Below, piece after piece: positions 61,828-63,319 of a DNA stretch of 64,000 nucleotides. The translations under genes were made by a program, and so were the position numbers. Numbering within the stretch: the stretch's first letter is position 1; each line of letters opens with the position of its first letter. This stretch comes from Minisyncoccota bacterium (GTDB lineage Bacteria > Patescibacteriota > Minisyncoccia > Phycocordibacterales > XYD1-FULL-46-19): contig JBBABX010000002.1 in the NCBI GenBank assembly GCA_041657405.1, positions 42,726 through 106,725 on the forward strand, written 5' to 3'. Below the pieces are notes generated by a model. The model had not been told where the DNA came from, ran no database searches, and was given only the letters and a program-made list of their open reading frames with translations.

Positions 61828-62013
61828 TTAATTAGACAAAAACTTTCTTATTCTCTCCTTTTTGGGTTTATAAAAATACCCCTTACTCTTCCATTTAGCA
61901 ATCTCTTTCTTGGCACTTTCCTCGGTGTTGCATTCATACAAAACACAAAAACCATTGACAAATAACCCTATTTCTGATATTATATTCGGGACTGCTCTTT
62001 GAGATAAGAACAC
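61828..62013 (-). CDS. small hypothetical protein
   Basis: 61-aa ORF with AT-rich, host-like composition. No motif recognised. Confidence 0.25.
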   Translation of the reverse strand: MFLSQRAVPNIISEIGLFVNGFCVLYECNTEESAKKEIAKWKSKGYFYKPKKERIRKFLSN

Positions 62014-62135
62014 TGCAAAACGATGTTTGAGATGAGCTTTTTGAGCTTCAAAGTCAGGGGCCTAGAAAGCTCGTCTCAAACTGAGGCAAGTCGTTCCGAG
62101 CGATCTCGGTAAATCAGAAAATGGAGATGATGTCG

Positions 62136-62927
62136 ATGAAAACATTGAACACGTCTGCACTGGTAACCGCAGACAGTCCGAAAGGACAGAGAGCTACCGA
62201 AACGTTCCGCGCCCAATATAACAAGGCGGGACTTGACGACGAAAGCGCACAGATCCTGAACGAGAATCCCGGCTTCGCCGTGTATCTCGCCGATGGTATC
62301 CGTCGCTTCTCAGCCAAAGCGCCCGACTACGGTCTGGCGCAGTCAATCCTCGGCATGGATTTCATCACGCCCGAGGAAGTCAGCAGGGCTCGCCCGAGCA
62401 TTGTGTACACCGACGACCAGATCACGGCACTCGCCGAAAGTCTGCCGTCGGAAGACATGCTCAAGTGGTGCAAGGACAACGGTTACGCCGTCATGCCCGC
62501 TCCGCCGCAGGCGTGCTCACTGCTCGACATTCGGGAGATCCTGTCCGCCCACTTCTGCTCGAAGACGGGTGGGTAGTATTCCTACCAGAAGTTCGCTCGC
62601 GAAGACAGGACGTCCTTCGGATGGCTCGCCATCAAGAAGACTCCGATCTCCGACTCGACCAGCAAAAACTGGAACGAGCAGAACAAGCTTCTGTCCACAC
62701 TCGAGACGGTGCCGAACGCCGCCGAGATGAGCTGGTTCATCACGACCTATTTCGAGGTCCGTGGTATCCGACTCTTCGAAAGCATCTACGTTCGGACGTC
62801 CAATCTCGACTCGGACGGTGACCGTGTTAGCGTCGGCGGCTTCGATTCCAAGGGTCTCTTAGTCAATAACTGGGGCGGCGGCCACCGCCAGGGCGACCTC
62901 GGCTTATCGGGTGTCAGGAAGCAGTGA
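62136..62927 (+). CDS. hypothetical protein in a high-GC segment, interrupted by a single in-frame TAG at 62574-62576 (frame open from 62121)
   Basis: GGAG lies 8 nt upstream of the ATG at 62136. ORFs 62121-62576 and 62709-62927 are in the same frame, and the 44 codons between them are stop-free and protein-like. The other two forward frames give Arg/Ser/Pro-rich nonsense typical of off-frame GC-rich DNA. Confidence 0.4.
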
Positions 62928-62965
62928 TCCTTGATCCCTTGAGGGCTTGTTCCTCTTGAATACTT

Positions 62966-63008
62966 GAGCCTTCGCGAAATTTTTTTTCGCGAAGGCTCTT
63001 TCTTTTTA
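62966..63008 (+). terminator. strong intrinsic terminator (14-bp perfect stem)
   Basis: GAGCCTTCGCGAAA-TTTTT-TTTCGCGAAGGCTC followed by TTTCTTTTT. Confidence 0.6.
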
Positions 63009-63024
63009 TACACAAACAAAAAAC

Positions 63025-63046
63025 CACCCGAAAGGGTGATTTTTTG
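63025..63046 (+). terminator. second, weaker hairpin plus T-tract
   Basis: CACCC-GAAA-GGGTG followed by ATTTTTTG. Confidence 0.4.
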
Positions 63047-63319
63047 TTCTGGTTACTGCTCTCAGTAGGTATGTAATGTGCGGAATAGTTACCTTTGATT
63101 TCTATCGAAACTTGAGGAGTCTAGGACACCCTTTTGGAAGGTTCGTGCCCATGACTCGTTCTTAAAATGCTTTGCAAATTATAGCGATTTTAAGAGTCTC
63201 GATAGATCTCACATGGCTGCTGCCGCAAAAGGATTCGAACCGTCTCGGTCTAGAACCAAAATTATCTTAGTATACGGCTTGTTTATTGCTCTTTTTTGCG
63301 GTATAAATGATTTACTTAT

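Follow-up and report, generated by a model that had tools for sequence, protein, structure and literature searches.

A DGR target gene of Patescibacteria, orphaned and most likely made a pseudogene by a recent amber mutation

A reading frame interrupted by one in-frame TAG, found in the window (the whole 64-kb stretch of DNA analysed here, from a Candidatus Paceibacterota MAG), is very probably an orphan target gene of a diversity-generating retroelement (DGR) that was recently hit by a nonsense mutation; the likeliest reading is a pseudogene rather than amber read-through. By its sequence, the gene is homologous to the variable (target) proteins that Patescibacteria DGRs act on. In an active DGR, a reverse transcriptase (RT) and Avd pair copies a template repeat (TR) into cDNA with errors at adenines, and this cDNA replaces the variable region (VR) of the target, diversifying the ligand-binding face of a C-type-lectin-fold (CLec) domain. 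The initial annotation had correctly described one interrupted gene, but had not recognized it as a DGR target that lacks its retroelement. The features of the locus, in window coordinates, are listed here.

61955–61983, + strand: sigma-70-type promoter (TTGACA, 17 nt spacer, TATTAT, TG extension), found by a scan and matching 11/12 consensus positions
62025–62081, + strand: 5′ leader hairpin of ~17+5 bp between promoter and start codon (inverted repeat I2), kept in relatives
62136–62927, + strand: interrupted gene for a homologue of DGR variable (target) proteins, with a helical N-terminal part and a CLec/FGE-like C-terminal part
62574–62576, + strand: in-frame TAG where relatives have a conserved TGG (Trp); the A at 62575 is the mutated base
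62804–62921, + strand: predicted VR, which covers the final 118 nt of the gene and is hypervariable across homologues
62901–62918, + strand: IMH-like GC-rich 3′ end of the VR, GGCTTATCGGGTGTCAGG, from DNA alignment
62966–62998, + strand: perfect 14-bp hairpin followed by a T-run, kept in relatives with compensatory changes

The TAG closes an ORF that begins at 62121, and the sequence across it (62570–62579) is TGGGTAGTAT, read as codons GGT GGG TAG TAT TCC. The unchanged frame then stays open for 116 codons, the next stop being the TGA at 62925–62927, as expected from the earlier description of two ORFs lying in one frame with a single TAG between them. Position 62121, which that description took as the start, is probably too far upstream; the likely start is ATG 62136 (MKTLNTSAL...), because GGAG lies 9 nt before it and several homologues begin at the same place. 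The gene sits in a block (~62020–62940) with a GC content of 0.55–0.64, against an average of ~0.36 for the remaining window, and its own GC of 0.58 and GC3 of ~0.75 compare with a GC3 of ~0.28 for the neighbouring genes. By composition the segment is foreign.

Searching with the read-through translation as query returned 283 database homologues. The best 120 of these were nearly all 245–280 aa long and covered both halves of the protein, with identities up to 90% and E-values down to ~1e-152; the named ones came from Patescibacteria MAGs (Taylorbacteria and Paceibacterota), and none of the homologues had a Pfam domain. Because full-length homologues align on both sides of the stop, the continuity of the frame is not a matter of chance, and the proposal of a single ~265-aa protein with one internal TAG, continuous across the gap between the ORFs, holds. 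Homologues did not end at the TAG, which would have pointed to two separate proteins, and the alignments identify the two ORFs as one gene. For annotation, we suggest joining the 151-aa and 72-aa ORFs and flagging them as a pseudogene.

The initial annotation had suggested asking which amino acid homologues spanning the stop carry there, and the answer was Trp. In a set of 67 loci taken from GTDB species-representative genomes, the column held Trp in 64 aligned stretches and Arg in 2, with a stop in the window alone, and Trp was invariant in 62 diverse homologues (32–92% identity). In the DNA alignment, base 62575 was G in 18/18 close relatives and A in the window. With Trp as the aligned residue and TGG as the codon in each of these 18 relatives, the alignments identify the change as TGG to TAG, a G-to-A transition at 62575. 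A nonsense mutation was one of three explanations offered by the initial annotation, and it is the only one that this conserved codon and the results below support.

The stop is one of ten private substitutions outside the VR, nine of them nonsynonymous (stop included) and one synonymous. This 9:1 ratio differed from the 108:96 pooled from 18 relatives (Fisher p = 0.024), in a sample that is small (10 substitutions) and depends on the relatives chosen, and may reflect relaxed constraint on the window copy. Six of the private changes ran from GC to AT and two from AT to GC, the bias to be expected when a gene of high GC content drifts within an AT-rich genome.

If the TAG were a sequencing or assembly error, the true gene would be intact with TGG, and the stop is indeed a one-base difference from all relatives. 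Three other assemblies, made with different assemblers and with contigs of differing size, nevertheless matched the window at 100% identity over 2.2–3.0 kb with the TAG included (L006/L007, JGI 3300014204; L008, ERZ27247350; and L009, ERZ27247346), and two NCBI MAG records, both labelled Candidatus Paceibacterota, contain the truncated 151-aa ORF. The eight further private nonsynonymous changes also fit real divergence better than a lone miscall. Because three other assemblies share the identical TAG sequence, a random sequencing error is unlikely; the matching assemblies may share a population or reads, so a population-specific allele is compatible with the match. Overall, we regard an erroneous TAG, the second explanation of the initial annotation, as highly improbable.

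The third, amber read-through or recoding, would have the TAG decoded through a suppressor tRNA, a reassigned code or programmed read-through, with the full-length protein still made. The 116 open codons, together with the intact promoter and terminator, would suit such decoding, as would the fact that the genome was viewed only in part (~75 kb); an open downstream frame is, however, also expected right after a recent mutation. The two checks proposed by the initial annotation, a tally of TAG as a terminator and a search for a suppressor tRNA(CUA), both spoke for a standard code. Of the 56 other ORFs treated as genes in the window, 42 ended in TAA, 9 in TGA and 5 in TAG, so that TAG is an ordinary terminator here; each of the five TAG stops was backed by another stop 1–11 codons further on, and no other gene in the window was split at a TAG. 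No tRNA(CUA) was found in the window or the next 11 kb, ~75 kb in all, by ARAGORN and Rfam, and the only tRNAs detected were Ala(GGC) and Ala(UGC) in the window and Gln(UUG) downstream. The RNA around the TAG was not significantly stable (z = −1.8), and a local structure promoting read-through was therefore discounted, as was pyrrolysine or another special residue at the site, given that the homologues encode Trp there and none has TAG.

We therefore consider decoding of the TAG very unlikely. The resemblance of the locus to amber reassignment or suppression (as in recoded phages and Pyl-decoding archaea and bacteria) is superficial, consisting of the in-frame TAG only, whereas TAG is a normal terminator here, no suppressor tRNA was seen in ~75 kb, a single gene is hit and its codon was originally TGG. 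The standard code applies in this genome, with TAG as an ordinary stop, and because each defining feature that was tested was lacking, the locus is not a member of any recoding system. One candidate for amber recoding is thereby removed, leaving the TAG as a plain nonsense mutation.

The assignment of the gene to the DGR targets came from its relatives. In three loci (L001, L002 and L005), genes for bAvd (PF22296) and for a reverse transcriptase (RVT_1) adjoin the target homologue on its 3′ side, and Avd and/or RT lay ≤6 kb from the gene in 24/67 genome loci, in two arrangements. In DGR-linked relatives the last 118 nt of the gene recurred ~360 nt downstream at 85–86% identity, with the mismatches falling at adenines of the downstream copy in 17/18 cases in L001 and 16/17 in L005. 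We assign the two copies as VR and TR because this concentration of mismatches at adenines is the DGR signature. Protein alignments likewise showed the C-terminal 40 residues to be hypervariable. Compared with the TR of L010, the VR in the window had 15 mismatches at TR adenines and 6 elsewhere, and on account of those 15 the sequence points to past diversification of this VR; identity between the window and L010 was 81% in the VR, 96% in the rest of the coding sequence and 99% in the 3′ untranslated region (62928–63010).

The homologues resemble the clade 2 DGR targets of Patescibacteria/CPR (Roux et al. 2021, PMC8144416) and the ‘CPR set’ of Wu et al. 2018 (PMC5758913), whose VRs are unclassified, in having bAvd and RT adjacent and in having a 118-nt C-terminal VR with a TR ~360 nt downstream that differs from it almost solely at adenines. 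CPR clade-2 targets are described as without recognizable domains or membrane segments (PMC8144416), and most CPR VRs are unclassified (PMC5758913); likewise, no Pfam domain, signal peptide or transmembrane segment was detected in the target homologues here. The nearest intact homologue gave only a sub-threshold Pfam match, to Aldo_ket_red, which we rejected as an identity, and a PDB sequence-profile search found no match at E up to 10.

A first AlphaFold model built from close homologues only was poor and had no meaningful matches, and once 34 distant homologues were added the pLDDT rose to 90.8. The modelled fold was C-type-lectin/FGE-like, with well-defined helices at residues 18–117 preceding the CLec-like part (AF2 model). 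The closest systems of known structure are the CLec-fold DGR variable proteins TvpA (2Y3C), Mtd (1YU0) and TaqVP (5VF4), together with the FGE/pFGE fold (1Y4J). A C-type-lectin (or Ig) fold carrying the VR characterizes the DGR target family, and the model has such a fold. A ‘hypothetical protein’ family with no Pfam match and hundreds of members in Patescibacteria is thus now identified as a CLec-fold DGR target.

In the same model, the stop falls inside the CLec-like region and takes away residues 152–268, that is, most of the CLec domain and the entire VR. The disruption is thus at a conserved site (Trp in 62 homologues) and costs the protein most of its CLec part and the VR, as in a pseudogene. 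An alternative is that the truncation is tolerated or selected, with a ~150-aa N-terminal fragment working alone or the two ORFs being separate proteins. The well-defined helices ahead of the CLec-like part would suit a fragment of this kind, and the gene in another locus, L038, breaks off after residue 146, although with a contig end 132 nt away this truncation may stem from the assembly. The stop does not, however, coincide with a domain boundary, all other homologues are full length, the ORF beginning with GTG at 62709 has no homologous stand-alone counterpart, and the private nonsynonymous excess (10 substitutions) speaks against purifying selection. We judge a functional fragment quite unlikely, and prefer loss of the gene by nonsense mutation.

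The gene lies in a self-contained cassette of ~1.07 kb (61955 to ~63010), consisting of a promoter, a structured leader, one gene and a terminator. The promoter −35 box is kept in relatives, with ATTGACAAA aligning in most other loci in the DNA alignment, and the leader hairpin had a few compensatory pairs in the RNAalifold consensus. No Rfam family was found in the GC-rich block, leader hairpin included; RNAI and His_leader gave weak, terminator-like matches below threshold and were set aside. The hairpin at 62966–62998, whose stem variants among relatives (TTCGCG/CGCGAA, TCCGCG/CGCGGA and CCTCGCG/CGCGAGG) preserve pairing, is probably the cassette terminator. Homology to relatives ceases at ~63010–63028, and none to L010 extends past 63030; L010 runs on into its TR region exactly where homology with the window stops. 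At the IMH-like end of the VR, a homing motif that is otherwise conserved, the window carries two private substitutions (G to A and C to T) seen in 0/8 aligned relatives, and two of the six non-adenine VR differences from the L010 TR fall in this short stretch.

Some further properties of the cassette were noted. A 22-nt A-rich imperfect direct repeat with 77% identity occurs at both of its edges (61933–61954 and 63005–63026); we rejected a target-site duplication, since the right-hand copy belongs to the conserved cassette end in relatives, and the repeat is probably chance or a piece of the cassette end. The window cassette has 96% nucleotide identity to L010, yet their flanks do not align. 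In most loci the target gene has a GC content of 0.54–0.64 (GC3 0.62–0.86) regardless of flanking GC (0.31–0.6), and in L020 the target has a GC of 0.54 while its Avd and RT are host-like (RT 0.29). This steadiness could reflect horizontal mobility of the cassette or a constraint at the nucleotide level.

No partner for the window copy was found. The RT and Avd of L001 had no tblastn match in the 64-kb window, and blastn searches that used TRs or the VR of the window as query found no TR there, the VR being single-copy. Downstream, the same contig in JGI metagenome 3300014204 allowed a view ~11 kb beyond the VR gene, and no RT, Avd or TR was present in it (RVT_1 and Avd being absent among the called genes). 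TR, Avd and RT were thus absent over ~75 kb, with 61 kb upstream and 11 kb downstream of the copy covered. In JGI metagenomes, the IMH 18-mer occurred in the window's own contig only, apart from 10 chance matches, and no TR bore it; a protein search with the L010 RT returned >7,600 RTs, none of which could be linked to the MAG of the window, P0173 and P0151 coming from other samples. Within ~75 kb, the locus accordingly has none of the traits of an active DGR: a cognate TR, RT and Avd, an intact ORF and a conserved IMH. On this sequence evidence, the copy in the Candidatus Paceibacterota MAG is an orphan within ~75 kb.

CPR DGR targets thus represent a known kind of system that is here decayed and orphaned, the window copy differing from them in having no TR, Avd or RT in ~75 kb, a privately altered IMH and a stop codon inside the gene. 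DGRs with remote targets are known, such as the seven targets of Treponema denticola (PMC5758913), and the window copy is like these in that it is of target type, has a VR with an IMH-like end and lies away from any RT. Remote targets are, however, intact genes serviced in trans, whereas the gene in the window is interrupted and no cognate TR was found for it; its IMH changes are common to no TR in the JGI metagenome collection. It is quite unlikely, in our estimate, that the orphan is alive as a silent or remote cassette of a DGR elsewhere in the genome. Such a copy could, for example, be held in reserve and swap sequence with an active target by recombination, or its expression could be gated by the stop and restored through reversion or low-level read-through. 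In a wider form of this reading, the GC-rich ~1.07-kb cassette may spread horizontally among Patescibacteria without depending on the RT.

We return to the preferred reading, in which the orphan has been inactivated. Orphan targets in two other loci, L015 (5700–5900) and L003 (upstream of the gene), retain ~100 nt of a TR-side element, gcgatatctcaaggtgagatatctcgcgagcttgaaccgtaa..., and because of these remnants the sequences indicate that orphans arise by deletion of the TR–Avd–RT module. The target cassette would then outlive the loss of this module and gather inactivating mutations. In the window, a G-to-A transition would have turned the conserved Trp152 codon (TGG) into TAG, with translation ending at codon 152 through normal termination; the predicted product is an N-terminal fragment of 146–151 aa, without most of the CLec domain, the whole VR and the ligand-binding variable face. 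We infer that the protein has lost its function and that diversification of the copy has ceased. The inactivation was probably recent, because no damage is seen in the promoter, the ribosome-binding site, the terminator or the downstream frame, and private changes affect only ~1.5% of positions. Other decayed copies were seen among the relatives: L038 is 3′-truncated, and L066 and L072 could be aligned only in separate pieces. The window copy may thus exemplify how a DGR decays, with a target left behind after loss of the TR–Avd–RT module and then inactivated.

Two observations concern the related loci with DGR genes. Of 24 essentially full-length DGR RT genes, 11 (L011, L013, L014, L017, L018, L020, L023, L037, L040, L046 and L048) shared a tract of simple sequence immediately 5′ of the GxPIGNLTSQ motif, always at one and the same site; the tract was (GA)5–15 in ten loci and G10 in L046, and in L017 it lay on the minus strand, ~555 nt into the RT ORF. 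The assembled RT was out of frame across the tract in 10/11, by one repeat unit, with L013 alone in frame, and the RTs without a tract were intact. The pattern resembles phase variation, in which strand slippage would switch the DGR reverse transcriptase ON or OFF; our literature search found no description of DGR RT phase variation through such a tract. Complete DGR cassettes of the family (L089:6291–7571, L001:7247–8792 and L088:3346–6127) adjoin a serine recombinase (Resolvase/Recombinase), DNA methyltransferases and MmeI/GmrSD-type restriction or defence genes, and this company suggests that they sit in mobile or defence islands.

Near the orphan cassette itself, a 104-nt direct repeat with 92% identity joins window positions 63138–63241 and L006:4576–4679 (window-equivalent 65253–65356). 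It takes in the final 23 nt of a gene for tRNA-Gln(UUG) (L007:4657–4728, minus strand) and 81 nt downstream of that gene, and the ~2.1 kb between the copies hold ASCH and GNAT/ASCH genes. The pair may represent a small tRNA-associated insertion or a segmental duplication, and the listed start of the ASCH ORF at 63213, which overlaps the tRNA fragment, is probably too far upstream.
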